Shown here piece by piece: positions 3,595-59,028 of a DNA stretch of 64,000 nucleotides. This stretch comes from an uncultured Actinomycetes bacterium (lineage in GTDB: Bacteria; Actinomycetota; Thermoleophilia; UBA2241). Under the pieces are notes generated by a model. That model was not told the origin of the DNA. It ran no database searches and was given only the letters and a program-made list of their open reading frames with translations. The position numbers and the translations under genes are program-made. How positions within the stretch are numbered: position 1 is the first letter of the stretch; each line of letters opens with the position of its first letter. Location of the stretch: positions 288,001 to 352,000 of the forward strand of contig CAVRZA010000006.1 of assembly GCA_963725665.1 (NCBI GenBank). Direction: 5' to 3'.

Positions 3595-5000
3595 CAGCCC
3601 GTGCCCCCCACCGTCATGCGCTTGATCCGCAGCGTGGGCTGCCCCGTGCCTACGGGCACCGACTGGCCGTCCTTGCCGCACATGCCCGATTTCACCAAGA
3701 AGTCGTCGCCGGCGATCATGTCGATGTTCTGCAGCACCTCGATGCCGTTGCCGACAAGGGTCGCGCCCCGCAGCGGCTTCGTCACGACGCCGTTCTCGAT
3801 CAGGTACCCCTCGGCCACGCCGAAGACGAAGTTGCCGCTTGCCGGCTCGACCTGGCCGCCGGCGAGGCTCTTCGCGTAGAAGCCGCGCTCGGTCTCGGCG
3901 ATGATCTCCTGCTCGCTGGAGGAGCCCTCGGCGATGAAGGTCGTCGTCATGCGCGGGATGGGGACGTGGCGGAACGACTGGCGACGGCCGTTGCCCGTCG
4001 AGGCTGCTCCGGCTTGGCGCGCGCGCAGCCTGTCGTAGAGATACTGGCGCAGGCGGCCCTCCTCGATAAGGAGCGTCCTCTGCGTCGGCACCCCTTCGTC
4101 GTCGAAAGCGCCCGAGCCCCACTCGTTGGTGATGCTGCCGTCGTCGTAGGCGCTCACGATCGGGGCGGCGACGACGTCGCCGAGGCGGCCGGAATAGATG
4201 CTCGCCCCTTTGGCTATAGCGTCGGCCTCGAGGCCGTGCCCGCAGGCCTCGTGGAAGAGCGTGCCACCGAAGCCGTTCGCCATGACGACCGGCATCGGGC
4301 CGGCAGGCGACGGCTCGGCGGCGAGCATGACCAGCGCCTTCTCGGCGGCCCGCCGGCCGATCTCCTGCGCGATGCGCTCGTCGACGAGCTCGAAGCCCAT
4401 GCTCTTGCCGAGGCTCTCGTACCCGGTCTGGATGATACCGTCACGGCGAGCCACGACGGTGGCGACGAGGCGCAGCCGCGTGCGGTCGTCGCGCACCAGC
4501 TCGCCCTCCGAGTTCGCTATGAGAATGACCTGGCGACCTTCACTGTACCCGACGATGACCTGGGTCACCTCGTCGCCCTGGGCGCGCGCGCCTTCGTCAC
4601 CAGCGCGCAGCAGCTCGCTCTTGGTCTTGATGGTGACGGTCTCGGGGGGCACCTTCAGAGGGTGCCGGCCGGTGTCGCGCCGCACGTCGCCGAGCGGCGC
4701 GATACCGGCCGTCACCCCGCCTCCGTCACGCATGGCGGCGGCGACGGAGTCGGCGGCGGCCAGCAGGTTCTGCTCGTTCACCTCGTCGGTATGCGCGTAG
4801 TAGGTACGCTCGCCGCTGTTGAGACGCACGGCGGCGCCGAACTCGTGACCCCCCGAGGCGTCCTCGACCTTGCCGTCCTCGAGCCGCAGGCCCAGGCTTG
4901 TGCGGTCCTCGACGAACACCTCGGCGAAGTCGCCGCCCCGTCTCAGCGCCCGCGCGACGGTCGCCCGCAGGAGTCCTATGTCTACCTCATCGACGCCCAT
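3594..5000 (-). CDS. tldD: TldD metalloprotease
   Basis: HEACGHGLEAD, FDDEG, PRMT, CGKDGQSVPV. Confidence 0.93.
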   Translation of the reverse strand: MGVDEVDIGLLRATVARALRRGGDFAEVFVEDRTSLGLRLEDGKVEDASGGHEFGAAVRLNSGERTYYAHTDEVNEQNLLAAADSVAAAMRDGGGVTAGIAPLGDVRRDTGRHPLKVPPETVTIKTKSELLRAGDEGARAQGDEVTQVIVGYSEGRQVILIANSEGELVRDDRTRLRLVATVVARRDGIIQTGYESLGKSMGFELVDERIAQEIGRRAAEKALVMLAAEPSPAGPMPVVMANGFGGTLFHEACGHGLEADAIAKGASIYSGRLGDVVAAPIVSAYDDGSITNEWGSGAFDDEGVPTQRTLLIEEGRLRQYLYDRLRARQAGAASTGNGRRQSFRHVPIPRMTTTFIAEGSSSEQEIIAETERGFYAKSLAGGQVEPASGNFVFGVAEGYLIENGVVTKPLRGATLVGNGIEVLQNIDMIAGDDFLVKSGMCGKDGQSVPVGTGQPTLRIKRMTVGGTG

Positions 5001-5163
5001 GCTCACCGTCCAGCTAGTCCGCCGGGCGCGCCCCCACGCCGGCCACACAGACGGGAGCAAAGGTCGTCGGCGGAGGCGCAGGGCAGCCCGCAGGCAACTG
5101 TATCACCTGCCTCGGGGGGTCTCGGGTCGCCCGCCGTTGGCCGTGATCGGCGGCCGCAGAAGG

Positions 5164-5859
5164 TCAGCCGACGGTGAAGCTCAGACGACAGGCGGATGCG
5201 CCGCGGCTGATCGAGGCATCGTCGACGACGTGCACGTCACGCACCCGGCCGACGACCGCGTCGACCAGGCCCTCGAAGAAGGCGTGATGCATCGGGCACA
5301 CCAAGTCGGGACGCAGCGCCGCGATCTCCTTGAAGACGCAGTTGCGCACCCGCACGTCGAGCTCGTCGCCATCCCAGCGGACCTCGGGCAGAAGACCCTG
5401 CTGCTCGGCCACCCTGCGCACGAGGTCGGCTGAGCTCTTCTTGCCGGAGCCTTTCGGCTTGCCCTGCTCCGCGACATAACGGCGACCTTCGGCGCGTCCG
5501 GCGTCGCGGCAGATGCCCAGCACGTCGTCGTCCGAGCCTCGCTGCGCGAGCGCCGTCAGCGCGAGGCTGGAGAGGAGGTCGTACCGCCGCGGAGGCACGT
5601 CGAAGGACGAGACCTGGCCACTCAGCCTGTAGAGGCGAGCCGGCCGGCCGCCGCCCTTCGTCTTGCGCAGACCCGTCGCCAGCAATCCGGCCTGTTCGAG
5701 CTTGCCCAAGTGCATGCGCGCCACGTTGGGATGCAGGCCGAACTGCTGCGCCACCTCGGCGACTGTGACGACGTCGTGCGGCTGCTCCGCGATCGAGCGG
5801 TAGATCCTATAGCGGGTCTCGTCGGCGAGAACGACCGACAACTGATGCTCGCGCTCCAC
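5164..5859 (-). CDS. ArsR/SufR-like HTH regulator with C-terminal Cys motif
   Basis: HPNVARMHL..L, GRP..LY, NCVF...LVC..H. Confidence 0.8.
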   Translation of the reverse strand: MEREHQLSVVLADETRYRIYRSIAEQPHDVVTVAEVAQQFGLHPNVARMHLGKLEQAGLLATGLRKTKGGGRPARLYRLSGQVSSFDVPPRRYDLLSSLALTALAQRGSDDDVLGICRDAGRAEGRRYVAEQGKPKGSGKKSSADLVRRVAEQQGLLPEVRWDGDELDVRVRNCVFKEIAALRPDLVCPMHHAFFEGLVDAVVGRVRDVHVVDDASISRGASACRLSFTVG

Positions 5860-6061
5860 AGTACCTCCCTGCGACGATCATAGAACAGGGGCTGGCGCGG
5901 TGTAAACATCGTTCTCCTAGTGCGAAAACACTAAAGGCCCTGATAGACTGCGTGATCGGCGCGGCGGCTCCGAGCCGTCACGCGAGACCGAGAGTGCTGA
6001 TGATCGACACATCCACTCGCCCCGCTCACCGGCCGCAGGCCGCGACCGGTAGCGAACCACG

Positions 6062-6910
6062 ATGACGGTCCTCCAGGCGATCATCCTGGGCATCGTGCAG
6101 GGCGTCACGGAGTTCGTGCCCATCTCGAGCTCCGGCCATCTGATCGTCGTCCCCTGGGCCTTCGGGTGGACGTTCTTCCTCGACCACCCCGACCTCAACA
6201 AGACCTTCGACGTGGCCCTCCACCTGGGCACCTTCATCGCCGTACTCGCCTTCTTCTGGCGCGACGTACTGCGCCTTCTGGCCGCCTTCTTCCGCAGCCT
6301 CGCCAGGCGTCGCGCAGAGACGGCCGAGGAGAGGCTCGCCTGGCTTCTCCTCCTCAGCACCATCCCGGCGGGCCTCGTCGGCGTGGCCTTCGAGGGGTTC
6401 ATCGAGGAACGGCTGGGCAAGCCGCTGCTCATCGCCTTCCTCATCATCGGCTTCGGAGTCGTCATGTGGCTGGTCGACATGCGCGCCGCGCAGACTCGTC
6501 ACCTCGACGGGTTGCGCTGGCTCGATGCGCTGCTGATCGGCGTCGCTCAGGCCGTCGCCCTGGCCCCCGGTGTCTCGCGGTCGGGCATCACCATGATCAC
6601 CGCCCGTGCCCTGTCGGTCGACCGCGAGTCCTCGGCGCGTTACTCGTTCCTCATGTCGATCCCCGTGATCGGCGGCGCCGCCCTCTACAAGGCGCTCGAG
6701 GTGGCGCGCGACGGCCTGCCAGCCGGTACGGCGCAGCCCTTCTTCTGGGGCATGGTGAGCGCCGCCATCTCGGGCTTCGCCGCCGTGTGGTTCATGCTCG
6801 CCTACCTGCGCAGCCACGACTTCCGGCCCTTCGCCGTCTACCGCTTCGTCGTCGGTGCGGCGATCATCGTCGTTGTCATAGCTGGGCTGCGACACGCCGG
6901 CGGCATCTAG
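6062..6910 (+). CDS. uppP: Undecaprenyl-diphosphate phosphatase
   Basis: QGVTEFVPISSSGHL and PGVSRSG motifs; hydrophobic. Confidence 0.95.
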   Translation: MTVLQAIILGIVQGVTEFVPISSSGHLIVVPWAFGWTFFLDHPDLNKTFDVALHLGTFIAVLAFFWRDVLRLLAAFFRSLARRRAETAEERLAWLLLLSTIPAGLVGVAFEGFIEERLGKPLLIAFLIIGFGVVMWLVDMRAAQTRHLDGLRWLDALLIGVAQAVALAPGVSRSGITMITARALSVDRESSARYSFLMSIPVIGGAALYKALEVARDGLPAGTAQPFFWGMVSAAISGFAAVWFMLAYLRSHDFRPFAVYRFVVGAAIIVVVIAGLRHAGGI

Positions 6911-7134
6911 CCGCACGGGGATCCCGCCCGCGACAGTGACACCGCCACGGCCGCCGTCGCGTGCGCGAGCGTGACGGCCGACCGCACCGGAGCCTGCCGC
7001 TGAGAGTCCACCTCCGACCGTCTCACCGGCGCTGCTATTACCCCCCGTAAGGCGACGTAACAAGACCGCTCACCTTCAGGCGAAGCGGGCTTATACTGAC
7101 GGCCTGCGAGCACGCCCGAGGGAAGCTGGTCTTC

Positions 7135-8199
7135 ATGCGCACGCTCAAGCTGGGAGATCGCGGCAAAGAGGTCGCCGACGTGCAGACCCGCCTGCACGGG
7201 CTCGGCTTCGAGCTCGGGGGCGAGGGAGCCGACGGCTATCTCGGGCCCAAGACGGTGGCCGCTCTGAAGGCCTTCCAGCAGCAGCGGCTGCTCCTGGTCG
7301 ACGGCGTGCTGGGAGCGAACACCTGGAGAGAGCTCGTCGAAGCGGGCTACGGCTTGGGCGAACGGCTGCTGTACCTGCGCGTGCCCAACTTCCGCGGCGA
7401 TGACGTGCTGGCGTTGCAGGTCAAGCTCAACCTGCTCGGCTTCAACGCCGGTCCCGAGCGCGGTATCTTCGACGACGAGGTCGAGCACGCGGTCATCGAG
7501 TTCCAGCGCAACGCCGGGCTGCCGCCCGACGGTTCCGTTGGTGAGAACACGTTGCGCACCCTGGACGTGCTGCGCAAGGGCGAGAGGGGCCGTGAGGGCA
7601 AGAAGATCCCCGACCGCGATGAGGGCTACGTCCCCCGGGGCGTCTTGGCCGGCAAGCTCGTGGTGCTCGATGCGGGACACGGCGGGCGGGACGAGGGGGC
7701 GGTCTCGCCCTCAGGGCTCAGGGAGAAGGACATCACACTCGCGCTCGCCCTGAGACTGACAGAGCTCCTGCGGGCCGAGGGCTGCCGGGTAGTGCTGACT
7801 CGCACCACGGACGAGTGGGTGCCGATGTACGACCGCCCCGAGAAGGCCGACGCGGTTGGAGCGGAGTACTTCATCTCCCTGCACGCGAACGCGAACGTCG
7901 CTCCCGAGGCGGCCGGCGCCGCCTGTTACTTCTTCCAGCGCAACCACTACTATTCGGAGAAGGGTGAGCGCCTGGCCGACTACCTGGGCGACCGTCTCTC
8001 GGAGGCCGGCGTGCGCTTCCTGGGCAGCTTCGGACGCAACTACGCCATGCTGCGCGAGCCGCAGGCGATCGCGGTGCTCGTAGAGCCGCTCTTCCTCACC
8101 AACCGCGAGGAGGAGGCGGCCGCTAAGCGCCCAGACGGCATCGAGCGCCTGGCGGTCGCGCTCCTGGCCGGCCTCGAGGGCTACGTAGGCCGCGCCTGA
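7135..8199 (+). CDS. N-acetylmuramoyl-L-alanine amidase with two peptidoglycan-binding domains (CwlM-like)
   Basis: Two PG_binding_1-type repeats (GD.G..V..Q..L; FQ...GL..DG), then LDAGHGG, EKD, SLHAN. Confidence 0.88.
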   Translation: MRTLKLGDRGKEVADVQTRLHGLGFELGGEGADGYLGPKTVAALKAFQQQRLLLVDGVLGANTWRELVEAGYGLGERLLYLRVPNFRGDDVLALQVKLNLLGFNAGPERGIFDDEVEHAVIEFQRNAGLPPDGSVGENTLRTLDVLRKGERGREGKKIPDRDEGYVPRGVLAGKLVVLDAGHGGRDEGAVSPSGLREKDITLALALRLTELLRAEGCRVVLTRTTDEWVPMYDRPEKADAVGAEYFISLHANANVAPEAAGAACYFFQRNHYYSEKGERLADYLGDRLSEAGVRFLGSFGRNYAMLREPQAIAVLVEPLFLTNREEEAAAKRPDGIERLAVALLAGLEGYVGRA

Positions 8200-8211
8200 G
8201 CCTCCGTCGCT

Positions 8212-9084
8212 GTGAACGACCAGACCGAAGAGCAGGGACGCGGCGTCGGCTTCACCGTCACGCAGGCGCAGCGGCTGCGCGAGCTGGGGGCCGGCGAAGC
8301 GCAGCTTTCGCTGCGCTTCGCCGGCCCGCCCGACCGCGACGCCGCCTTCAAAGCGCTCGAGAACGAGCTCACGCGGGCGGGGCGCCGGCGGCTCGCCGCG
8401 CTGCGCGAGGCGGGGCGCCGGCGCCCCGCCCTGTCGGAGCTCGCAGAGACGCTCGCCGCGCGCGTGCGCGAACTCGGCTTCGTGCAGGTGGTCACACCGG
8501 CGATCATCACGCGCGACGCCCTGCGGCGCATGGGCATCGGCGCCGGGCATCCTCTCGCCGAGCAGGTCTTCTGGCTCGAGGGCGAGCGCTGCTTGAGGCC
8601 CATGCTGGCGCCCAACCTCTACACACTCTGGCGCCGCCTCGCGCGCGTGTGGCCGCTGCCGTTCGGGATCTTTGAGATCGGCTCTTGCTTCCGCATGGAC
8701 ACGAAGGGCAGCACGCATCTGAACGAGTTCACGATGATGAACCTGGCCGAGCTAGGCACGCCGCTCGCGCGCCGTCAGGAGCGCATCCGCGAGCTGGCCC
8801 ACGCCGTGATGCAGGCGGCGGCCGTCGGCGACTACGACCTCGTCGAGAAGGAGTCGGAGGTCTACGGCGACACCCTCGACGTGCTCGCCGGGTCGGCCCG
8901 GCTCGAGGTCTGCTCGGCGGCGATGGGGCCGCACCCACTCGACGAGGCGTGGGGCATCGTCGATCCCTGGGTCGGACTCGGCTTCGGTCTCGAGCGCTTG
9001 CTCCTCGCGCGCGAGGACGAGACCACGATCGAGCGCGTAGGGCGCAGCCTGAGCTACCTCGACGGCGTGCGCCTCAACCTGTAG
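8212..9084 (+). CDS. pylSc: Pyrrolysyl-tRNA synthetase catalytic subunit (bacterial split type)
   Basis: TQAQRLREL N-terminus, CLRPMLAPNLY, HLNEFTMMN, YGDTLD, WVGLGFGLERLL, SLSYLDGVRLN. Confidence 0.96.
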   Translation: MNDQTEEQGRGVGFTVTQAQRLRELGAGEAQLSLRFAGPPDRDAAFKALENELTRAGRRRLAALREAGRRRPALSELAETLAARVRELGFVQVVTPAIITRDALRRMGIGAGHPLAEQVFWLEGERCLRPMLAPNLYTLWRRLARVWPLPFGIFEIGSCFRMDTKGSTHLNEFTMMNLAELGTPLARRQERIRELAHAVMQAAAVGDYDLVEKESEVYGDTLDVLAGSARLEVCSAAMGPHPLDEAWGIVDPWVGLGFGLERLLLAREDETTIERVGRSLSYLDGVRLNL

Positions 9085-9085
9085 C

Positions 9086-9124
9086 GCGAGCGGGCGGCCC
9101 GCCTGCGGCGGGCCGCCCGCTCGC
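9086..9124. terminator. 18-bp inverted repeat between convergent pylSc and corrinoid gene
   Basis: gcgagcgggcggcccgcc-tgc-ggcgggccgcccgctcgc. Confidence 0.7.
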
Positions 9125-9143
9125 CTGTCTCGACGAAGCTTCC

Positions 9144-9788
9144 CTACGCGCCGACGAGCTCCGTAATCTTCTTGACGCCGTCGTTGGCGTCCTCGGCGTA
9201 GGCGTCGGCGCCGATCTGGTCCGCCCACCGCTGCGTTGCCGGGGCTCCACCGACGACGACCTTGTACTTGTCGCGCAAGCCGCGCTCGAGCAGGACCTTG
9301 ATGAGCTTCTTCTGTTCCTCCATGGTGGTGGTGAGAAGCGCGCTCATGCCGATCACGTTTGCGCCGGTCTCCTCGGCCTTGCCGATGAAGGTGTCGATCG
9401 ATGCGTCGCGACCGACGTCGAAGACCTCGTAGCCGTGCGCCTTGAGGTAGGCGATGACGATCGCCTTGCCGATGTCGTGCACGTCGCCCTGCACGGTGCC
9501 GATCACGACCCTGCCCTTGGCCGCACCCGAAGCGCTCCCGAGAGCCTCGTTGCAGATGCGTGTGGCCGCGTCCATGGCCTGGGCGGAGAGCATGAGCTCG
9601 GGAAGGAACATCTCGCCGCTCTCGAACATCTCGCCGACCTCGCTGATGCCGGCGATGAAGCCGTCGTTCATGACCTCGGCGGGCGCCATACCGGCGGCGA
9701 TGGCGTCCTTCGCCACCTGAGCCGCCTTGTCGGCATCGGCGTTGACGATCGCATCGATCGCCTCGCGGACCATCTCGTCCTTCGTCAT
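9144..9788 (-). CDS. Methyltransferase cognate corrinoid protein (MttC/MtbC-like)
   Basis: Cap domain FLPELM, GTVQGDVHDIGK cobamide motif, SALLTTT, VGGAP. Confidence 0.93.
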   Translation of the reverse strand: MTKDEMVREAIDAIVNADADKAAQVAKDAIAAGMAPAEVMNDGFIAGISEVGEMFESGEMFLPELMLSAQAMDAATRICNEALGSASGAAKGRVVIGTVQGDVHDIGKAIVIAYLKAHGYEVFDVGRDASIDTFIGKAEETGANVIGMSALLTTTMEEQKKLIKVLLERGLRDKYKVVVGGAPATQRWADQIGADAYAEDANDGVKKITELVGA

Positions 9789-9995
9789 CCTTCGACTCCT
9801 TCTCGACGTCGACCTCGGTCCCCCTACCGCAGGGCCGGCCGGACGCGCCTGTGACGCGTCGCCGGCGACGATCCTCCCACCGGACGACCAGGCAGGATCT
9901 GCTGCTGGAAGATCCCGCCTAGTATACCGAACGGCTCGCCCCAAGAACGACAGCGGTCGGAGCCCGACTCGAGCCTGTGGTAGAGTCTCCGAGCC

Positions 9996-10874
9996 ATGCG
10001 CTACGTCGGCTCCGTCATCCGCCCCCCCAGCGAAGCATCAAGCCTCATCGTGCAGGTCACCTACGGTTGCTCCAACGCGACCTGCGACTTCTGCGCCACC
10101 TACCTCGACAAGCCCTTCGGCATCCGGCCCTTCGCCGAGATCGCCGCAGACGTCCGCGGTCTGACACCTGGGGTCAAGGAGAGGACGCGGCGCGTCTTCC
10201 TCGCCGACGGCGATGCCGTCGCGCTCTCGCCGCGCCGCCTGCACGAGATCCTCGAGCTGCTGCATGCCGAGCTGCCGCGGCTCGAGCGCGTAAGCTCCTA
10301 CGCCAACGCCCGGAACCTCCTGCGCAAGAGCGTCGGGGAGCTGCGCTCACTGCGCGAGGCTGGGCTGCAGCTCGTCTACCTGGGTCTGGAGTCGGGAGAC
10401 GACGAGACCCTGCGGGCGATCCACAAGGGCGTGACTGTGGCCGAACAGATAGAGGGCTGTCGCAGAGCGACGGAGGCGGGCATAGGGTTATCCATCACCG
10501 CCATCCTCGGGCTCGCCGGCGCCGAGCGCTCACTGATCCACGCACGCGCCACCGGCGAGGCGCTCTCGGCCATCGACCCCGAGTTCATCGGCGTGCTCAC
10601 CCTCATGGTCGTGCGCGGCACGGGCATGGCCTCCCGAGTCGCAAGCGGCGAGTTCGCCGCCCCCGACGTGCTCGGCATGCTGCGCGAGCTACGCGAGATC
10701 GTCGCGTCCACCGAGGTCAGCGACTGCCTCTTCCGCTCGAACCACGCCTCGAACTACCTGCCCGTCGGTGGCCGGCTCCCCGACGACAAGCGGGCCATGC
10801 TCGCCGCCCTCGACGCCGCCCTGGCGACCCCCGAAGCGGCCGCCCTGCGACCCGAGGCTTGGCGGCTGCTCTAG
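9996..10874 (+). CDS. Radical SAM protein, function unknown
   Basis: IRPPSEA.S, GCSNATCDFC, FLADGDA, GLESG, FRSNHASNY. Confidence 0.9.
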   Translation: MRYVGSVIRPPSEASSLIVQVTYGCSNATCDFCATYLDKPFGIRPFAEIAADVRGLTPGVKERTRRVFLADGDAVALSPRRLHEILELLHAELPRLERVSSYANARNLLRKSVGELRSLREAGLQLVYLGLESGDDETLRAIHKGVTVAEQIEGCRRATEAGIGLSITAILGLAGAERSLIHARATGEALSAIDPEFIGVLTLMVVRGTGMASRVASGEFAAPDVLGMLRELREIVASTEVSDCLFRSNHASNYLPVGGRLPDDKRAMLAALDAALATPEAAALRPEAWRLL

Positions 10875-10889
10875 CAGTCTCCGCGAACG

Positions 10890-11234
10890 CTAGGCGCTGG
10901 AGTCGTCGCGGTCGAGCAGGTGTGAGCCGTACCCGCGGTTGAAGCGGGTGGCGGCGTACTTGCGCTGCTTCCACTCGGGGATGCTGCACTGGGGGCAGGC
11001 GGCGAAGAACCACTTGTTGCGCAGCCAGCGTGCGGCACGGCTGTTCTTAGAGTCGTGGATGACCATGCGCTTGTTGCAGTGCGTCGTGACGTGAGCGTAG
11101 GAGCCGTGCACCTCGAACTCGCGCACGCCGTGCAGTACCCCACGGCGCGAGGGCCAGAGCTTCATCTTCGCGACGAGCCTGAACAGGGGGACTTGCTTTC
11201 GGTAGTAGACGCGCTTGTCGGGGTCTGTGGGCAT
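10890..11234 (-). CDS. pylSn: Pyrrolysyl-tRNA synthetase N-terminal subunit
   Basis: KMKLWPSRRGVLHG, THC, SKNSRAARWLRNKW, CPQC.IPEWK. Confidence 0.95.
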   Translation of the reverse strand: MPTDPDKRVYYRKQVPLFRLVAKMKLWPSRRGVLHGVREFEVHGSYAHVTTHCNKRMVIHDSKNSRAARWLRNKWFFAACPQCSIPEWKQRKYAATRFNRGYGSHLLDRDDSSA

Positions 11235-11433
11235 CGCCTGTCGTCCGCCGGCTGGTAGTGCGTGATCACGCTTGATTCTAGCAGGCGGCACGAGCGGAAG
11301 GCAGGGACCGGTTCGGCGGTCAAACGGCTGCGAGATCGGATCCGGCCATCACCTCACATCGCGGCGATCGCCGGCCGAAGAGGAGCTACCCGGGACCCCG
11401 CGAACTGGTGAGCGGGCGGATTGGAGGTCGACG

Positions 11434-32035: not shown

Positions 32036-32072
32036 GTCGGCCCTTCCACCATTCCGAGGACGTGCGCACGCA

Positions 32073-33350
32073 TCATGACTCCCCCCACACAGTTCGCGGG
32101 TCCACCGCCGTCTCGAGCATCGTAAGGGCGCGCTCGACCAGGCGGCGGCGCAGCGCCACCTCGTCGGCCCGGTTCTGCTCCGGATCACCCACGGGATTGG
32201 TGATGGCCACGCCGCGCACGATGCGGTTGGCGCCGACCATGACGGCTATCGTCGGCAGGGCCGTGATGATCACTGTCGGTATCCCGGCTCGTTCCAGCTC
32301 TTTGGCCAGCGTTGCCCCGCAACGCGTCCCCGTTCCTCAGGTTCCTGTGAGCAGCACAGCGTTGATGTGCGCCTCGTGCAGCTCCTGGGCGATCTCCTGC
32401 CCGAACTTGGCCGCCGTGGCCACCGGCGTCGAGTTGCCGGTCGTCGTGTAGAAGACGTCGTGCAGCCGTCCGATGCGACCCTCGCGCTCCAGCACCCGCA
32501 CAACATCAAGCGGCACGAGCCGGTTGGGATCGGCGTTCGCGACGCCGACATCGTAACCGCCGTGCACCGACTCGAACTCGCCCGCGCGCAGAGAGTCGAC
32601 GTCCCTCAGCGAGTAGCGCAGCCACTTGTGCGCGCGGTTCGACTCGAGATGGTCCGGATTGCCCTGCGGGACGCACCCGGCCTCGCTCACCAGCGCCAGC
32701 ATAGCAGTGCTCAGATCGGCCACAGGGGCCGGCGGCGGCACGAGGTCTCGCGGTGCTTCGACCTCCGTGTATGTCTTCCCCTCGAGCTTCGCCAGGAGCA
32801 TCTCGACGGCGCGGGCTGCGCCGGGCAGCTCGCAGAGCTCGTTGCGGCGCAGCCCGCGCGGCAGGTAGCCCTCCTCGGCCGGTCCGCCGACCGGTTCGCG
32901 GGTTCCGAGGCGGCGAGCCAGTGACGCCATCTTGGGCAGTGTGTCGCGCATGGCTGCCACGCGCGACCCGGTCGGCACGACGTACGCGGCGCCCTCGGCG
33001 GCGAGTACTCCCGGGCTCTCCGGCTCCATGCCGCAGACCGCAGGGATGCCGCGACGCGCCGCCTCACGGGCCAAGACGCCGCAGGCGTAGCCGTAGCGCC
33101 CGGAGCCGAACGAGGGTCCGCAGACGAGCACGTCGGGGCGCTCGGCCTCGAGGTGGCGCAGCAGCGTCGCCAGGGCCGTCTCTTCGTGCTCGCCGAAGTA
33201 ATCGTCGCCGCAGGCAAGCGTGGCCGCCACCTCAAGGCCGAGCGCCCGGCCTGGCCCAACGGCACCCTCGAGTCGCAACGGCGCCATACCGGCAGAGTCC
33301 TCACCGCCGAAGCCGGCGAAGAACTGGTTGAGGTAGTGAACGACTCTCAC
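32073..33350 (-). CDS. grdB: Glycine/betaine reductase selenoprotein B; Sec at TGA 32337-32339
   Basis: VHYLNQFFAG, CGD.YF, GRYG, HGGYD, GN.T; frame continues through TGA as LTGT-U-GTGTRCGATLAKELERAGIP...GANRIV. Confidence 0.94.
32309..32325 (-). promoter_or_regulatory. SECIS-like hairpin 11 nt downstream of the grdB UGA
   Basis: mRNA GCGUUGC-GGG-GCAACGC. Confidence 0.65.
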
Positions 33351-51947: not shown

Positions 51948-53216
51948 ATGAAGATCGAATCTCTGCGGGCACGGCAGCTTATCGACTGCATGTGCCGGCC
52001 AATGGTCGAGGTCGAGGTCGTGACGGAAGGAGGATTCGTCGGCAGAGGCGCAGCGCCTACCGGCCAGTCCGTGGGGATGCACGAGGCCTTCGTGCTGCGG
52101 GATAACGATCCTGACGTGTACAACGGGCTCAGCGTTCACCGGGCGGTAGAGAACGTCCGGCACGTAATCGCGCCGGCCCTGATCGGGATGCCGGTCGACG
52201 ACCAACGCGCCCTCGACGACCTGATGATCGCCCTCGATGGGACAGAGAACAAGAGCAACCTGGGCGGTAACGCCATCTACTCGACCTCGATCGCCTGCCT
52301 CAGGGCTGCTGCTGCCGCCGCCGGTCTGCCCCTCTATCAATATCTCGGGCGGGAGCGTCTCAAGACGGTTCCAGTACCAAGTTTCAACATGGTGAACGGG
52401 GGACGATACCGCGACTTCGTACAACCGTTCAATGAGTTCATCGTCATGCCCTACAAGGCAGAGTCCATCTTTGAAGCGGTGGAGATGGCGGTCGATCTCT
52501 TCGACGTGATGTCTGGCGTTCTAGAGGAGCACCTCGGATCGTCTCCGAAGGTGGCGCGCTCCTATGGCTACGTTGCGCCGTCTGAGGATCCTGAAGTCGT
52601 CCTTTCGTTGATGCAGGAGGCGATCGATCGCTGCGGGTACGCGGACAAGATGGCCTTCGCCCTCGACTGCGCCTCGAGTGAGATGTACGACAGCGCGACC
52701 GCGACCTACTACCTCAAGGGGGGGCGGGTTGGCACTGACGAGCTGATTTCCTACGTCAAGGACCTGACCGAGACGTTCAACTTGGTGTTCGTGGAGGACC
52801 TCCTGGACGAGAACGACTGGGACGGCTATCCACGTGCCGTGAGGCAGATTCCCCGCACCATCATTCTTGGAGACGACCTCATCGCTACGAACCTGGCGCG
52901 TCTTCGGAAGGCGACAGCCATGGGGGCGATCGAGGGATTTGTCTTCAAGCCCAATCAGATCGGGACGATCTCGGAGGCCTTGGAGACCTATGAATACGGG
53001 GTCGCACACAACCTCGTCGCAGTCCCCTCTGGGCGCTCGGGCGGTGTTGTCGATGACGTGGTCATGGACCTATCGGTCGGACTCCAGGTTGCATTTCAGA
53101 AGAACGGCGCGCCACGGTCGGGAGAGCGGATCGAGAAGCTCAACTTCCTCATGCGTGCTGCTGACTCAATTCCTGACTGCTCCCTGGCAGATGTAGTCAG
53201 CATCGTGAAGTTCTAG
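51948..53216 (+). CDS. Divergent enolase homolog
   Basis: LGGNA, PVP.FN..NGG, LDCASSE, VED, GDDL, KPNQIG, RSG; several canonical catalytic residues changed. Confidence 0.88.
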   Translation: MKIESLRARQLIDCMCRPMVEVEVVTEGGFVGRGAAPTGQSVGMHEAFVLRDNDPDVYNGLSVHRAVENVRHVIAPALIGMPVDDQRALDDLMIALDGTENKSNLGGNAIYSTSIACLRAAAAAAGLPLYQYLGRERLKTVPVPSFNMVNGGRYRDFVQPFNEFIVMPYKAESIFEAVEMAVDLFDVMSGVLEEHLGSSPKVARSYGYVAPSEDPEVVLSLMQEAIDRCGYADKMAFALDCASSEMYDSATATYYLKGGRVGTDELISYVKDLTETFNLVFVEDLLDENDWDGYPRAVRQIPRTIILGDDLIATNLARLRKATAMGAIEGFVFKPNQIGTISEALETYEYGVAHNLVAVPSGRSGGVVDDVVMDLSVGLQVAFQKNGAPRSGERIEKLNFLMRAADSIPDCSLADVVSIVKF

Positions 53217-53280
53217 TGCCGCGACTAGATCTCGTGCCCCCCGCGCAGCGTACCCACCCTGTGGCGCAAACGCCTGGCTT

Positions 53281-53502
53281 GGCTTCTCCGACAGGGGAGC
53301 CGTCCTCGCCGATCGGGTGGTGGCCGCCGCCATCCTGAACTGCCTCTTGCACCACGCCACCGCGGTGAACACCAAGGGCAAGAGCTTCCGCATGGGGCGG
53401 CTTCAAGATCAAATCGACAAGGAGAGAGGCGGCGCTGCTGTGGTCCAAGGGAGCTCTGCACTCTTCATGAGCGGCTCACTGCACTTCTCGTGATCGCCTG
53501 CA
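53281..53502 (+). mobile_element. IS21-family remnant (istB 3' end and right end)
   Basis: Translates FSDRGAVLADRVVAAAILNCLLHHATAVNTKGKSFRM (IstB C-terminal AILDRLLHH...GESYR type); repeated ctgcact motif, ending in CA. Confidence 0.75.
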
Positions 53503-53530
53503 GCCGCGGCTCTGGTACTCGGCGCAGCCA

Positions 53531-53821
53531 GTGGAGAGTGGTCAGCGCCACCTGGCCCACCAGGCCGCTCGCACACAACGGGCCTGCGCGCTCTTCACCG
53601 ACTCGGATGGTATCGACGGCGCGACCGACGCGGCGGGGGGCCTGGTCGACGACCTCACCGTGCGCGAGGCGGGCGAGCGCGGCGTCGATATCGGCGCGGC
53701 CCTGGCCGCGCACACCTCGAAAGACGCGCTCGCCCGCCTCGCCGATCTCGTCCTCACCGGCCCCACCGGCACCAACGTCAACGATATGAAGATCCTGCTG
53801 AAGGCCGCGGCAGCGCGTTGA
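53531..53821 (+). pseudogene. C-terminal (MOFRL) fragment of a glycerate kinase
   Basis: DSDGIDGATDAAGG...LVLTGPTGTNVND; N-terminus missing. Confidence 0.82.
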
Positions 53822-53863
53822 TGCCCGGGATCGGGCAGGCCGACAGCTTCGCCGAGCCGCGGA

Positions 53864-54268
53864 TCAGCCGAATCCGAACGGTCCCCACAGGTAGAAGACG
53901 ACCGCGTTCCCGACGCCCGCGGCCAGCGTCATCAGCAGCGCCACGCCTGTGATCCACGCCGATGAAGAGTGCGGCCGTCCGCGCCGGCCCGCAGCGAGCG
54001 CAAGAAGCACCAGCGCCACCGCGTCGGCGGCGCCGACGACGATGTAGATCGCCGGCGTCCAGAGGGTCCGCACCGCCTCATCCGGGTGAGCGAGGAACGC
54101 CCACAGCACGAACGCGAGCGAGGCCATGAGGATGACCAGCGCAGCCACGATGGAACCTCGGCGTGTGCGGCCGACGCGCAGGTTGTGCACGAACAGTTCG
54201 AGCGTCAGCAGCGGCCCCAGCCCGATGAGAAGCACAAGCGCGATGACGAGCACTGCGTTGCGTGGCAC
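53864..54268 (-). CDS. Hypothetical membrane protein (about 4 TM segments)
   Basis: Four hydrophobic stretches; plausible codon usage. Confidence 0.6.
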   Translation of the reverse strand: MPRNAVLVIALVLLIGLGPLLTLELFVHNLRVGRTRRGSIVAALVILMASLAFVLWAFLAHPDEAVRTLWTPAIYIVVGAADAVALVLLALAAGRRGRPHSSSAWITGVALLMTLAAGVGNAVVFYLWGPFGFG

Positions 54269-54468
54269 GGTACCCCCGTCGGTAGCCTGCGGTCGTCGGA
54301 CCCGCGAGCACTGACGCAATACTACAGGAGGCCGGCAGGGGCGACGCGAGGTTCCCCGGCCCGCGGAACGTTGGCGCCTCATGGCCCCAAGCGCCGTCCC
54401 TCGTCGCCACATGACGCAGACCGCTTATGCAGCGATGGGCACGACGTCGCCGCGCGCGCAGTGAAGAG

Positions 54469-55733
54469 GTGGCGGGCAGTGCGGGAGTTACACCCGCCTA
54501 CGTGATCCAGAATCCTCCTAAACTCATAAGAGATACGGTGAGCGGGTCTTTTCGAGCCTAGAAGCGCAGATTAGGGGAGGCAAACCGGCCTGCGCTGAGC
54601 CTACTGTCAAACACCTCGTCAAACACCTAGACGCGCTACGCGCGGCCAGTCCGTCCCTCCGCAACGGGCAGCGGCGCTTCATCAGGGCAAGCGGCTATGC
54701 CCCGTCGAGTCCCTTAGGGGCGGCGGGAGGCTCGGCCGGGCGGCCTTGCTCGTCAGCGGGAGGTCGTCAGACGACTGGACGCTCACCTGTGTTGTCGCGG
54801 CGGGGCGTCTATGCAGTTGGAGGCGGCGTCGTCGTGACTGGCAGTCACCTGCGATTCTGCGCCCTTAGGACCAGCAGGCCTATGCCAAGCATGACCACGA
54901 GGGCGACCAGAATGATGAGGGGTCCTATGATTCCGCCTCCTATGTCCGTCGTCTTGGTCAGCTTAGCAGACGGTGGGTCATGACCGGATTGGCCCCCTAC
55001 CCGCCCGCGCCCTGGCCCCTGCGCTCACCCGTGCCGTCGTGGCGGTCGCCTGCTGGAGCCGGAGGCGGGCCGATGGTGGTGGCTATCTTCGCCGCTTCCT
55101 ATCGAGCGCGACCACGGCAGCGATGCCGGTACACAGGAGAGCCGAGAAACCAGTCGAGCCAGCCGGAGAAGACCACAGACGCCCACAGGGACAGCGCCAC
55201 GCACGGGTCCCCCTAGAGCTGCCGCCGGAGCCACGCGGGGTCAGTCTCTTTCCTGAGTAGCGACCTCGGCCCACTTGGCGTCGGAGATGACGCCCGAGGT
55301 GTCGAGTTCGCGTCGGTCCAGTTCACGCTGTTCGTCCATGTCACCTCCCTCGCGCGATGAAGCCGAGCGCGCCGCCCGCAGCGAAGGCGAGGACGCCGAA
55401 GAACGGGAGGGCGAAGATGGTCATGAGGCTATTCCACTGGGTCGTCGTTCGATGGTCATGGGGCTATTCCTCTAGGTCGCGGTTGGCATCGTCGGGCGGC
55501 GGCACGATGGGGAGCTGGATGCGGAGCCTCACGCCCACCGGGGCTACGGGACAGCGGCACCGAGGCAATCGGCGTCGGCCTGAAGATGAAGAGCTACGAG
55601 GGTTGGCCGAAGACAGCGCCGGACGAGTGGTGTCTTGAGTTCGTCGAGCAGGCGACCTGACAAAGGTAGGAGGGCGGCTGTCTATCCGCGGAGTAAGAAA
55701 GTGGCGGGGAGTGCGGGAGTTACACCCGCCTAC
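54469..55733. mobile_element. ~1.2-kb remnant of an element integrated at the tRNA-Pyl 3' end
   Basis: 33-bp direct repeat 54469-54501 vs 55701-55733 (one mismatch); tandem GTCAAACACCT; only tiny ORFs (55241-55339, 55341-55424); no integrase. Confidence 0.8.
54606..54628 (+). repeat. Tandem 11-bp direct repeat, possible integrase arm-type sites
   Basis: GTCAAACACCT-c-GTCAAACACCT about 105 bp inside the att-like repeat. Confidence 0.55.
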
Positions 55734-55774
55734 ATGGATTTAGAGTCCATGCTGATCTTTCCGATCGACCCCCC
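55702..55774 (-). tRNA. pylT: tRNA-Pyl (anticodon CUA)
   Basis: GGGGGGU C GAUC GGAAA GAUC AG CAUGGA CUCUAAA UCCAUG UAG GCGGG UGUAACU CCCGC ACUCCCC G CCA: one base between acceptor and D stems, small D loop, 6-bp anticodon stem, 3-nt variable loop, no UUC; follows pylD. Confidence 0.97.
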
Positions 55775-55828
55775 GCGGTGCTCCATTGTACGCCTCAAAG
55801 CAGTGACGGCCGCCATGGCGCCCCTCTG

Positions 55829-56638
55829 CTACCGCAACCCCTCGAGTGCCATGGTCACAACGCCCAGGGCGAGCGGCTCGTGTATGTGGCGCTCGCCGAG
55901 AGCGGCGGCCGTTTCCAGACCCGCCGCCGGCGGGATCCCGGGGGCCGATACGATGCTGTCCGGAGTCACCCACTCTGCGGGGATGAGGTCGCCCACGGGG
56001 GCGGCGTCGAGGACCAGGTGACTGCGGGCGAGACCCTCGGCGAGTTCTACGGGTTGCAGACCGAGCTCCCGCGACACTCGCGCGAGCCGCGCGCGGTCGG
56101 GGTCGGCGGCGAGGGCGGTGGCGCCAAGCGCCACCGCCCTCGCCGCCGCGGTGCTGCCGACCGGACCGAGGCCGAGAATCAGAACCTCCTTGCCTCGCAG
56201 GCCCCCCGCTGCGGCGTCGAGCGCGGCGAGGAAGGCGCGCCCCGTCGCCTCACCGTTGTCGGAGCACACGCCGGTCGTGATATTGAGTGCGATGAAGCGC
56301 TCCTCGTCGGCCGCGAACACAAGCCGGGCGCCAGCCTCGGCGGCCTCGGCGAGGCCGGAAATGTCCGGATGCGCGGTCACCCAGGCATCGCAGCCCACGT
56401 GTCGGCAGATGCTGGCCACCGACTCAGAGAACCCTGAGATGAAGCCCTGGCCAGCGGAGATCGGCAGAGCGACCACCGGGGCATCCCTGAGGCGTTCGTC
56501 GGCCTCGTCCGACCGCAGATCCAGCGCGTGCGCGGCGATGGCCGCCAGACCGAGCCCGGTGGCACGCGCGAGCCGCTCATCGAGCCCAGCGACGCCGTCG
56601 GGCAGCCAGCGCACGTCGTCCTCCGTCAACCTCGTCAT
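55829..56638 (-). CDS. pylD: Pyrrolysine synthase
   Basis: MTRLT, P.SAGQG.I.GF, D..G, ADE.RF, NGEATG, GLGPVG, PG.P, HEPLALGV. Confidence 0.93.
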   Translation of the reverse strand: MTRLTEDDVRWLPDGVAGLDERLARATGLGLAAIAAHALDLRSDEADERLRDAPVVALPISAGQGFISGFSESVASICRHVGCDAWVTAHPDISGLAEAAEAGARLVFAADEERFIALNITTGVCSDNGEATGRAFLAALDAAAGGLRGKEVLILGLGPVGSTAAARAVALGATALAADPDRARLARVSRELGLQPVELAEGLARSHLVLDAAPVGDLIPAEWVTPDSIVSAPGIPPAAGLETAAALGERHIHEPLALGVVTMALEGLR

Positions 56639-56696
56639 CCGACGCCCCCCGCTCCTTTCGCGGTCCCTGCTCGAGCCGTGGACGATCCCCTGCGGG

Positions 56697-57914
56697 TCAT
56701 GGCTGTCCACCGCTCGCCACAGTCGCTGACCGAACCCCATGGGGGTTGACCTCAGGAAGCAGCCGCAACCCGCACTCCTCCGCGATGCGCGCCTCGACGT
56801 CGTGGGTGCGGCGGCGCGCCTCTGCGACATCGCCGCCGCGCACGATCAGGGTCGCCACCCACTCCCGCTCGCCCCCGTCGAAGTCCGTCATCGCCTCGTC
56901 GGCGCCGAAGAAGCCTTTGACAAGCTGCAAAGGCGGCGCGGAACCCATGACGTGCTCCCCCACCACCTGCAGCGCGTCTTCGCGGGCGCGCACGTGCTCG
57001 TAGACGACCCCGCGCAGTACGCGCCGGTTCGGTTCCGGTACGGCGCCGGTCGCGAAGGCCGCGACCAGCAGTTCGAGGAGATTGACGTCGTAAGCGTGCA
57101 GCACCGCGGCCGGCGTCTGGCTGGGAAGCCGGGCGTCGATCTCGATGACCTTCGCCTCACGTCCGGCGATCATCACCTCGACGTCCATGATGCCGCTCAG
57201 CCGCAGCTTCGCCGCAAGCCGTTCGCCGCTGTCGGCGAGCGACGCCAGCGCCTCCTCGACGACGTCCGCGTAGAACGCGTCCCCGGCAACCGGAGCCGTG
57301 ACACGCTTGCAGTCGAAGGCGTCGTCGAACTCGAGACCCGTGACCAGACACGGCACCGACCTGCCCTCGAGCGCCAGCACCTCGATGGAGAGCGAGGGGC
57401 CGGCCACGAACTCCTCGACGACGACCTCGTGGCCGGCCCGCTCGAGGTCGAGCCGGGCCTCCTCGAGCTCGCGCTCACTTGCCGCCACGCGCACTCCCTC
57501 GCTGCCGCTGGCGGCGCTCGGCTTGACCACCGCCGGCAGGCCGCACACCGGCCAGGGCAAAGGGGCCGGCACACCTAGCTCGCGCATGAGGTCGTTGGAG
57601 GCCGCCTTCGACGAGGTCACGCGATACGCCGACAGATCGAAAAGCAGCGGTACGCCGAGGTCTGGAGCGAGCCGCGCCAGCCTCTCGAGCGCCGCGTCGT
57701 CCTCACAGGCCGGCAAGACGGCGTCGCAGGAAGCCAGGAGCTCACGCGCCAGCGCCTCGTCACGCGTGACGTCGAGGAGGTGGCTCTCGGTGGCGAGGCC
57801 GGTGGCGGGACGTCCCTCGCGACGGTCGATCAGGACGGTCTCAAAGCCGGCCTTCAGGCCGAGGTAGCAGGCCTCCGTGCCCTGAAGCTTGCCACCGACT
57901 ACTCCGAGACGCAT
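56697..57914 (-). CDS. pylC: 3-methylornithine--L-lysine ligase (ATP-grasp)
   Basis: VGGKLQG.EA.YL, PA.E, AY...SSK, KP...SGS.GV, DCKRV, EIDARLPSQTP. Confidence 0.95.
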   Translation of the reverse strand: MRLGVVGGKLQGTEACYLGLKAGFETVLIDRREGRPATGLATESHLLDVTRDEALARELLASCDAVLPACEDDAALERLARLAPDLGVPLLFDLSAYRVTSSKAASNDLMRELGVPAPLPWPVCGLPAVVKPSAASGSEGVRVAASERELEEARLDLERAGHEVVVEEFVAGPSLSIEVLALEGRSVPCLVTGLEFDDAFDCKRVTAPVAGDAFYADVVEEALASLADSGERLAAKLRLSGIMDVEVMIAGREAKVIEIDARLPSQTPAAVLHAYDVNLLELLVAAFATGAVPEPNRRVLRGVVYEHVRAREDALQVVGEHVMGSAPPLQLVKGFFGADEAMTDFDGGEREWVATLIVRGGDVAEARRRTHDVEARIAEECGLRLLPEVNPHGVRSATVASGGQP

Positions 57915-57936
57915 GGACCTGCCTTTCGCGGCCGCC

Positions 57937-59028
57937 TCAGACCGCGATCGAGGCCATCTGGCGCGCTTTGGTGGCGTCCACCCACTCGCCGTACTCGGCG
58001 GCGTCGGCGGCCTCGAGCCCTAGAGCCGGCAGGTGCTCGGTGACGCCGGCGACGCTACGCAGACCGGCGTCGATGTCGAGCTCCGACTGCGAGACGCCGC
58101 ACAGGCCCGACGAGGGCGGCACGAGCGAGGTGACGACGCTGGCGCCGGCCTCGAGGCGCGCCTCGAGGCCGGCGATGCCCTCGACGTCGAGCGAGGCCGG
58201 GATAAGGCGTTCGGGCATCACGAGGCGCATGCATGCGATCACGAGCTGCTCCTCGAGCACACCGACGCTCGTGAGCCCCGCGAGCGGCGTGCCCGGCTGG
58301 GGCACGAAGCTCATGACCCGCACCTGGGCGAGCGGCTGGCGGCGCATCTCGAGGATCGAGTTGGCGCGGTCGGCGAAGGTCTCACCGACGCCGATGAGGA
58401 TGCCGTCTTCGACGAGGAGGCCCGAGCGCGCCGCCGCGCTGCGCGCGGCGGCGCGCTCGTCGTAATCCTGCCGTAGCCGAAGGCGCGCGTAGAGGTCGCG
58501 CGTGTGCGTCTCCTGGTAGCATGCGTACCAATCGGCGCCGACGGCCGCCAGCTGGGCGAGGACGTCGTCGGGGACGACGCCCGGAGAGACCATGACCGGC
58601 AGGCCGACCTCGCGCCTCACCGTCGCCACGAGGTCGACGAGAGCGCTGAAATCGCGCGCATCGTGGATCAGGGGATCCTCGCCCATGGTGAGGTCGAGGA
58701 GGTGCACACCCGAGTCCGCCAGATCGCGGCATACGGCGACCACCTCAGCGACCGACTTGCGGTAGCGCGGGCTCTCGGTGTTGTCGCGGCGGTAGAAGCA
58801 GAACGTGCACCAGTTGCGGCAGTACGTCGAGAAGTAGACGAAGCCGTAGAGGAAGACGCGGTGGCCGAAGTTCTCCTCACGCGCCGCGCGCGCGGCCGAG
58901 AACACCGCCTCGGCATCCTCACGCGAATCGATGCCCAGCAGACGCTCGAGCTCGCGAGGTGCGAGATCCTGGCCGCAACGAGCGCGCTCGAGGATGTGAA
59001 CGATCTCGGGGGAGGCCGACCGGGTCAT
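57937..59028 (-). CDS. pylB: Methylornithine synthase (radical SAM)
   Basis: YGFVYFSTYCRNWCTFCFYR, SGVHL.DLTMGEDP, YQET, MSFVPQ.GTP, IPASLDVEG. Confidence 0.96.
   Translation of the reverse strand: MTRSASPEIVHILERARCGQDLAPRELERLLGIDSREDAEAVFSAARAAREENFGHRVFLYGFVYFSTYCRNWCTFCFYRRDNTESPRYRKSVAEVVAVCRDLADSGVHLLDLTMGEDPLIHDARDFSALVDLVATVRREVGLPVMVSPGVVPDDVLAQLAAVGADWYACYQETHTRDLYARLRLRQDYDERAAARSAAARSGLLVEDGILIGVGETFADRANSILEMRRQPLAQVRVMSFVPQPGTPLAGLTSVGVLEEQLVIACMRLVMPERLIPASLDVEGIAGLEARLEAGASVVTSLVPPSSGLCGVSQSELDIDAGLRSVAGVTEHLPALGLEAADAAEYGEWVDATKARQMASIAV

Follow-up and report, generated by a model that had tools for sequence, protein, structure and literature searches.

A probable tyrosine-integrase integration scar at the tRNA-Pyl gene of a Thermoleophilia bacterium

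Tyrosine integrases insert prophages and islands into tRNA and tmRNA genes, and such islands can be located with finders such as Islander and TIGER. Anticodon-loop and T-loop sublocations within the target gene have reportedly been distinguished by K. P. Williams, and the anticodon-loop sublocation is typical of many tRNA-targeting tyrosine integrases. The apparent insertions described here, which lie at the gene for tRNA-Pyl (pylT) in a 64-kb window (that is, the whole stretch of DNA that was analysed) and in its relatives, resemble these elements in that the tRNA is regenerated at one end, a 3′ fragment in direct orientation lies at the other, an integrase gene stands beside the tRNA gene and the identity block in the relatives extends from the anticodon loop to the CCA. 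They differ in their target, tRNA-Pyl, and the copy in the window lacks an integrase and has a block that starts later, at tRNA position 41.

Three further systems invite comparison. In Enterobacteria, pathogenicity islands and phages integrate at selC (tRNA-Sec), which, like pylT, is the single-copy tRNA gene of a recoded amino acid serving as attB; however, the tRNA, the host phylum and the element families are different, and the pylT case has no sign of virulence cargo. CIMEs, described in Streptococcus thermophilus, are att-flanked, integrase-less remnants of integrative elements; they share with our window two att sites around short DNA without a recombinase, whereas the content here looks like decaying DNA and its mobilisation in trans is only putative. 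In pSAM2 and similar actinomycete integrative elements, xis and int lie beside an attP that overlaps the tRNA gene. The host here is likewise actinobacterial and, if two metagenome contigs discussed below (L184 and L177) belong to one prophage, an HTH_17 gene and an integrase gene would flank attP after excision; unlike pSAM2, the elements at pylT carry tailed-phage genes and use another target tRNA. The mechanism itself is classical, the novelty with respect to the literature searched being confined to the target tRNA: the portions of that literature open to our search contained papers on genetic-code expansion or unrelated topics and no earlier report of tRNA-Pyl or pylT as an integration site, in keeping with the original prediction, whose author knew of no described case.

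The tRNA-Pyl gene and the repeat of its 3′ end

The genome that contains the window (G000; 3.73 Mb in 12 contigs) carries the repeat on a 578-kb contig. ARAGORN identified a single tRNA gene in the 64 kb, pylT (55702–55774, minus strand; 73 nt, anticodon CTA/CUA, encoded CCA), which is 84–95% identical to pylT of relatives in the family and would represent the attL side of an insertion. Rfam at gathering thresholds gave no match in the window, pylT included. As the Rfam tRNA model misses pylT at the gathering score and ARAGORN finds it, pipelines that use Rfam alone would miss the gene and any island bounded by it.

Directly upstream of pylT lies pylD (55829–56830, minus strand; PF21455 PylD_N, 7.5e-27), followed by a gene for a pylC-like ATP-grasp ligase (56697–57914, minus strand; ATP-grasp families), whose location between pylB and pylD fits pylC, and one for a pylB-like radical SAM enzyme (57937–59028, minus strand; PF04055, 3.4e-14). 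The catalytic domain of pylS (8347–9081, plus strand; TIGR02367, 314.6 bits, above the cut-off) is 46.6 kb from pylT; the Pyl genes are thus split, with pylS in a conserved block (3810–11288) apart from the genes at 55702–59028. About 44 kb lie between this conserved block and pylT here; in the relative G015, pylS is separated from pylT by about 5 kb. The intervening DNA encodes glycine/sarcosine/betaine reductase, AFOR, ABC transporters and other metabolic functions, and the window contains no further pylT-like fragment that could serve as a far att site for these ~44 kb. Given the ordinary metabolic genes and the lack of a further att fragment, we do not call this region an island.

Of the 89 genomes in the Thermoleophilia family concerned, 80 contain the 3′ half of pylT, and pyrrolysine decoding therefore looks like a family trait; in the accessible parts of the literature, the sole text that contained both Thermoleophilia and pyrrolysine was unrelated. 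A GrdB-like gene elsewhere in the window (32040–33350, minus strand; PF07355, 2.3e-117) has an in-frame TGA at codon 338, after which the frame stays open for a further 88 codons, and the motif at this codon is TGTUGTGTRCG. To judge from these sequences, the host is probably capable of decoding both selenocysteine and pyrrolysine, with both signs inside one 64-kb window.

The original prediction held that the 3′ end of pylT (55701–55733, minus strand; 33 nt) recurs at 54469–54501 with one mismatch, and this was confirmed: the second copy lies on the same strand (that is, in direct orientation), 1.2 kb downstream of pylT, and is identical at 32 of 33 positions. The block comprises the last base of the anticodon stem, the variable loop (TAG), the T arm (GCGGG-TGTAACT-CCCGC), the 3′ strand of the acceptor stem, the discriminator G73, the CCA and one further nucleotide. 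The one difference is a change of C69 to G opposite G4, which agrees with the predicted conversion of the G4–C69 pair into G–G. The match was also expected to be specific on the ground that the Pyl T loop lacks UUC; the loop reads TGTAACT, without TTC, and a 21-nt core of the block, at up to 2 mismatches, occurs at these two places only in the whole 3.73-Mb genome. Allowing up to 3 mismatches, the 33-mer had no other match in the window beyond the two copies, the number of matches expected by chance was 0.00 and two matches appeared in none of 100 dinucleotide shuffles.

Outside a 50-nt alignment centred on the block (54455–54504), the flanks of the fragment and of pylT are unrelated: neither the insert nor the DNA past the fragment is similar to the other or to the remainder of the genome. 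Within that alignment, 9 of the 14 bases just past the CCA agree between the two copies, and on the 5′ side of the fragment (54502–54515, minus strand) a degenerate, weak likeness to the anticodon arm can be aligned by eye at 11 of 16 positions with one gap. An intact tRNA gene followed by a direct repeat of its 3′ portion is the arrangement of a tRNA att duplication. Sharp borders with unrelated flanks around a 97%-identical block argue against tandem or segmental duplication and fit site-specific recombination, and this is the chief argument drawn from the window itself. The block corresponds to tRNA positions 41–73 and thus starts between the canonical anticodon-loop and T-loop sublocations; it is shorter than the blocks of the relatives, either because attP was imperfect there or because the region has decayed.

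The insert between the copies (54502–55700; 1,199 nt) has a GC content of 0.651, versus 0.709 for pylBCD. Only tiny ORFs had been predicted in it, and the longest has 95 aa. A Pfam search of its 32 stop-to-stop frames (at least 24 aa) returned nothing above noise, no part of the insert is similar to the rest of the genome, and no tyrosine integrase lies between the copies. A local integrase HMM and tblastn found no remnant over 53200–55702, and PF00589 had no match anywhere in the 64-kb window. Given this lack of an integrase, we read the locus as a decayed scar and not as a live element.

The insert does hold a decayed gene for a small Cys-rich protein (55427–55660, plus strand), which is 57% identical (E 3.9e-13) to residues 18–68 of a 69-aa protein of the relative G012. 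The first start codon of the decayed frame falls within its last 24 codons, two N-terminal cysteines have been lost, and the frame, convergent with pylT, ends 41 nt from the CCA end. The gene for the 69-aa protein (L049:10120–10329, minus strand) encodes five cysteines (MDHCRECRAW... DEWCLEF); it occurs in 3 of the 89 family genomes, and its product has 10 homologue clusters, all unnamed, among 5.8 billion proteins. On the basis of this pseudogene of a gene found in so few genomes of the family, we regard the insert as accessory DNA in decay. Two tiny tandem ORFs (55241–55424, minus strand) encode a hydrophobic peptide of 27 aa and an acidic one of 32 aa, the ATG of the latter being preceded by a GGAGG-like site. 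One read contig (X3) joins 54987 to 55699 across undetermined letters, with a side of 31 and a likeness floor of 88, and is too weak to use.

Past the pylT fragment lies a zone of gene debris composed of a pseudogene fragment that keeps the C-terminal part of a MOFRL glycerate kinase (53531–53821, plus strand; PF05161, 3e-19, profile positions 30–106 only), which is 40% identical to the neighbouring intact gene, and a weak match to the C-terminal end of the IS21 protein IstB (53317–53493, plus strand; PF01695, E 0.0011, profile positions 208–232 of 238). Farther on, the segment 49000–53500 has a GC content of about 0.60 (0.606), versus 0.67 for the window, and carries genes for an ornithine cyclodeaminase-family protein, a glycerate kinase and an enolase. 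This low-GC block, which ends at the IstB tail and the MOFRL pseudogene, may be a separate acquisition.

Prophages, integrases and fragments at pylT in relatives

The original prediction also held that a phage or island lineage targets pylT, and suggested that viral databases might contain an attachment site beside an integrase. Such a record exists: IMGVR_UViG_3300005254_000029 (locus L177, contig Ga0068714_10004350; 15,956 nt, 41% complete according to CheckV) ends with a full pylT, and its 389-aa integrase (PF00589, 3.1e-28) ends 13 nt from the CCA. Behind the integrase gene lie genes for the large terminase, the portal protein, the head maturation protease and a minor tail protein. This tailed prophage and the relative G013 have identical pylT genes, yet the two sequences diverge immediately past the CCA. 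Two further scans of viral sequences, one with the integrase as the query and one with a looser pylT pattern, returned this same record only. One idea raised with the prediction, that such elements might carry internal TAG codons, found no support: under translation table 11 the hallmark genes of the prophage need no internal TAG. Reading TAG as pyrrolysine did not meaningfully lengthen them, and it did not rescue a truncated integrase on another contig (L207, below).

A second occupied site was found in the family genome G022, in which a 454-aa integrase (PF00589, 1e-18; PHROG integrase, 4.5e-61), convergent with pylT, ends 108 nt from the CCA and is followed by genes for a primase-helicase and a large terminase. 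By synteny, the ~34 kb at pylT in G022 are absent at the same place in G015, G003 and G012; they also hold a fragment of a second integrase, a D5-type primase, an IS3 transposase and an HNH endonuclease. In a search for the attR of this prophage-like element, no second copy was found at 21 of 24 positions or better, only 12–13-mers at chance level, and the junction with the conserved block is without a fragment. Within the family, pylT stands at very different distances from the conserved block: about 60 nt in G003, about 130 nt in G015, 1.8 kb in G012, 2.35 kb in G011, 2.5 kb in G019 and G045, and about 34 kb in G022.

The pylT site is nonetheless rarely occupied. An integrase gene downstream of pylT was found in 1 of the 77 other family genomes (G022; 1.5–10 kb examined, contigs permitting), a downstream pylT fragment in none of these 77 within the examined flank, and a pylT-adjacent integrase in 2 of 77 full-length pylT loci from metagenomes. 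A family-wide listing of PF00589 matches was dominated by Xer-like proteins and was unusable for judging adjacency to pylT. The integrases near pylT are diverse, with 43% identity between those of G022 and G011, 46% between those of L207 and G022, and 28–39% between that of the IMG/VR record and the others, which indicates that more than one integrase lineage uses the site.

Fragments of pylT add to this picture. The metagenome scan yielded 80 loci among more than 120 matches (77 with a full pylT and 3 with fragments), and L184, L207, L249 and L250 were viewed over 2 kb on each side; as metagenome contigs and metagenome-assembled genomes may share an origin, these cases are not all independent. 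The closest analogue of our window is L207, whose pylT is 72/73 identical to that of the window. Its truncated integrase (109 aa; PF00589, 3.5e-14, positions 92–169) keeps the HDLRH and catalytic Tyr motifs, the integrase frame stops 113 nt short of the pylT CCA, and ~1.8 kb downstream the same contig carries a 45-nt pylT fragment (42/45 identical) that extends from the anticodon loop to the CCA. With integrases at 113, 13 and 108 nt from the CCA in L207, the IMG/VR prophage and G022, respectively, the proposal of phages or islands that target pylT is borne out in the relatives.

In contig L184 (Ga0068714_10002646), whose name has the metagenome prefix of the IMG/VR prophage record, a 47-nt fragment matches the pylT of that prophage at every position. 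An excisionase-like gene (HTH_17, 2.5e-12) at the contig end precedes this fragment by under 10 nt. On the simplest reading, L184 would supply the attR and the IMG/VR contig the attL of a single ~38-kb prophage. A 62-kb host contig (L239) has the same 47-nt 5′ flank and stops exactly at the CCA, which is consistent with a population in which only some members carry the prophage. In the genome G096, two contigs (L047 and L048) break inside pylT or at its 3′ end; together with the end of L239, these breaks hint at strain-level variation at the site in those samples.

Among the 89 family genomes, two copies of the pylT 3′ half occur in G000, G011 and G096 only, and the second copy in G096 is one pylT represented twice at overlapping contig ends. 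In G011, the full pylT is on one contig and an identical 46-nt piece, which starts slightly ahead of the anticodon loop and reaches the CCA, is on another, with a tyrosine integrase 2.7 kb to one side and an IS66-family transposase on the other side; this fragment may represent attR or attP. The integrase in G011 is a member of a multi-copy family that matches 65 of the 89 genomes at a significance of at least 1e-20, with 18 matches in the genome of our window, and the family members most similar to it, in G001 and G044, are encoded away from pylT fragments. Some members of this family contain one or two in-frame TAG codons (G000:C1:513258–514271 and G000:C6:270247–271020, as well as copies in G001, G047, G076 and G081), and other copies carry TGA or TAA. 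In Pyl-decoding hosts, the TAG-bearing copies could be pseudogenes or could be read through with pyrrolysine.

Each fragment was aligned to the best of 39 distinct pylT sequences, in which the anticodon loop occupies positions 30–36. The fragments of G011, L184, L249 and L250 (46–48 nt) span positions 28–73, 27–73, 28–73 and 26–73, respectively, without a mismatch, and that of L207 spans positions 29–73 with 3 mismatches; the block of our window, in comparison, spans positions 41–73 with 1 mismatch. The five fragments of the relatives thus share a start at or slightly ahead of the anticodon loop, and no two of them match the same pylT variant.

Origin of the repeat

Given these comparisons, we consider it probable that the two copies in the window are the attL and attR of a tyrosine-integrase element (a prophage or island) that inserted into the 3′ part of pylT and has since decayed. 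A temperate element whose attP carries the 3′ 33–48 nt of the host pylT would have brought in a tyrosine integrase able to exchange strands within that block. Integration would have rebuilt a working pylT joined to element DNA, with the integrase gene adjoining, and the original 3′ end of the host gene would have come to lie past the other end of the element. Deletions may subsequently have removed the integrase and nearly all of the cargo and left 1.2 kb of decaying DNA. The C69-to-G change in the fragment would have arisen after displacement, since a G4–G69 pair in a working tRNA is unlikely to have been tolerated. We infer that the same process as in the relatives made the copy in the window, and likewise which copy was the host's original, that recombination took place and where the crossover fell. 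Three states can be seen at the site: the IMG/VR record and G022 have an intact prophage, L207 retains half an integrase in a remnant of 1.8 kb, and our window has a remnant of 1.2 kb without any integrase. Against this reading count the lack of an integrase or its remnant in the window, the start of its block at position 41 and not at the anticodon loop, the rare occupation of the site, the multi-copy nature of the G011 integrase family, the failure to find an attR in G022, the knowledge of the second copy from the assembly alone, and the limitation of the empty-site comparison to G022. Both flanks in the window are only slightly similar to the flanks of relatives (z about 2.3 and 2.5), and in pairwise flank alignments L207_A versus L186 alone stood out.

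A different origin, which we judge improbable, is that a second pylT, or a local duplicate that arose without any site-specific recombinase, once stood here and lost its 5′ half, so that the fragment is what remains. The agreement of 9 of 14 bases past the CCA (within the alignment at 54455–54504) and the faint likeness in the anticodon-arm region speak for such a relic. However, similarity is absent outside the 50-nt alignment and the block itself is 97% identical, and a non-functional relic of an age sufficient to erase all similarity in its flanks should not have retained 32 of 33 positions. The original prediction had itself pointed to a simple tandem duplication of pylT in relatives as a contrary case, and none was encountered: a real second 3′ half occurs in 2 of the 89 genomes (G000 and G011), in both of which it is a 3′ fragment and not a gene. 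Integrase elements, moreover, make exactly such fragments in the relatives.

We hold it very improbable that the 1.2-kb unit is still mobile (that is, a CIME-like, integrase-less mini-element that the tyrosine integrases of the genome move in trans). Both att-like sites are nearly intact (32/33), and several of the 18 PF00589 matches in the genome are 40–49% identical to the pylT-adjacent integrases of G022 and L207; yet many of those integrase copies are fragmentary or contain in-frame stops, and a pseudogene is the only recognisable content of the unit. The joint of 54469 to 55701 is also absent from the read contigs, which, however, leave the fragment uncovered. That the second copy is an assembly artefact is hardly credible, for although it is known from the assembly alone and the read contigs of four runs, out of 13 with shares of 0.12 or less, do not cover 54386–54790, it stands in unique sequence on a 578-kb contig, differs from pylT by one base, has different flanks, and parts of the insert recur at 95–99% identity in contigs from other samples.

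Implications for Pyl-decoding hosts

The decayed-scar reading, together with the occupied sites in relatives, adds the tRNA of the 22nd amino acid to the list of landing sites for integrative elements. Given that the Rfam tRNA model missed pylT at its gathering score, we suggest that tRNA-Pyl models should join the island finders. The intact tailed prophage, the half-decayed element and the fully decayed scar together show the life cycle of insertions at this gene, and an attP of 46–48 nt that matches a lineage-specific pylT variant provides a sequence-level link between uncultured phages and uncultured Pyl-decoding hosts. The insertions also put a hot spot of recombination next to pylBCD, which is relevant to the spread of the pyl cassette.

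A broader scenario, which is speculative and in our view rather unlikely to hold in full, would make pylT a recurrent landing pad in Pyl-decoding Thermoleophilia for a guild of temperate phages, the attP of each following the pylT variant of its host. Repeated insertion and decay would then have piled up foreign DNA at the site (~44 kb from pylS to pylT-pylDCB here versus ~5 kb in G015) and, given that pylBCD adjoin attL, the pyrrolysine cassette could pass from host to host when an element is excised imprecisely.
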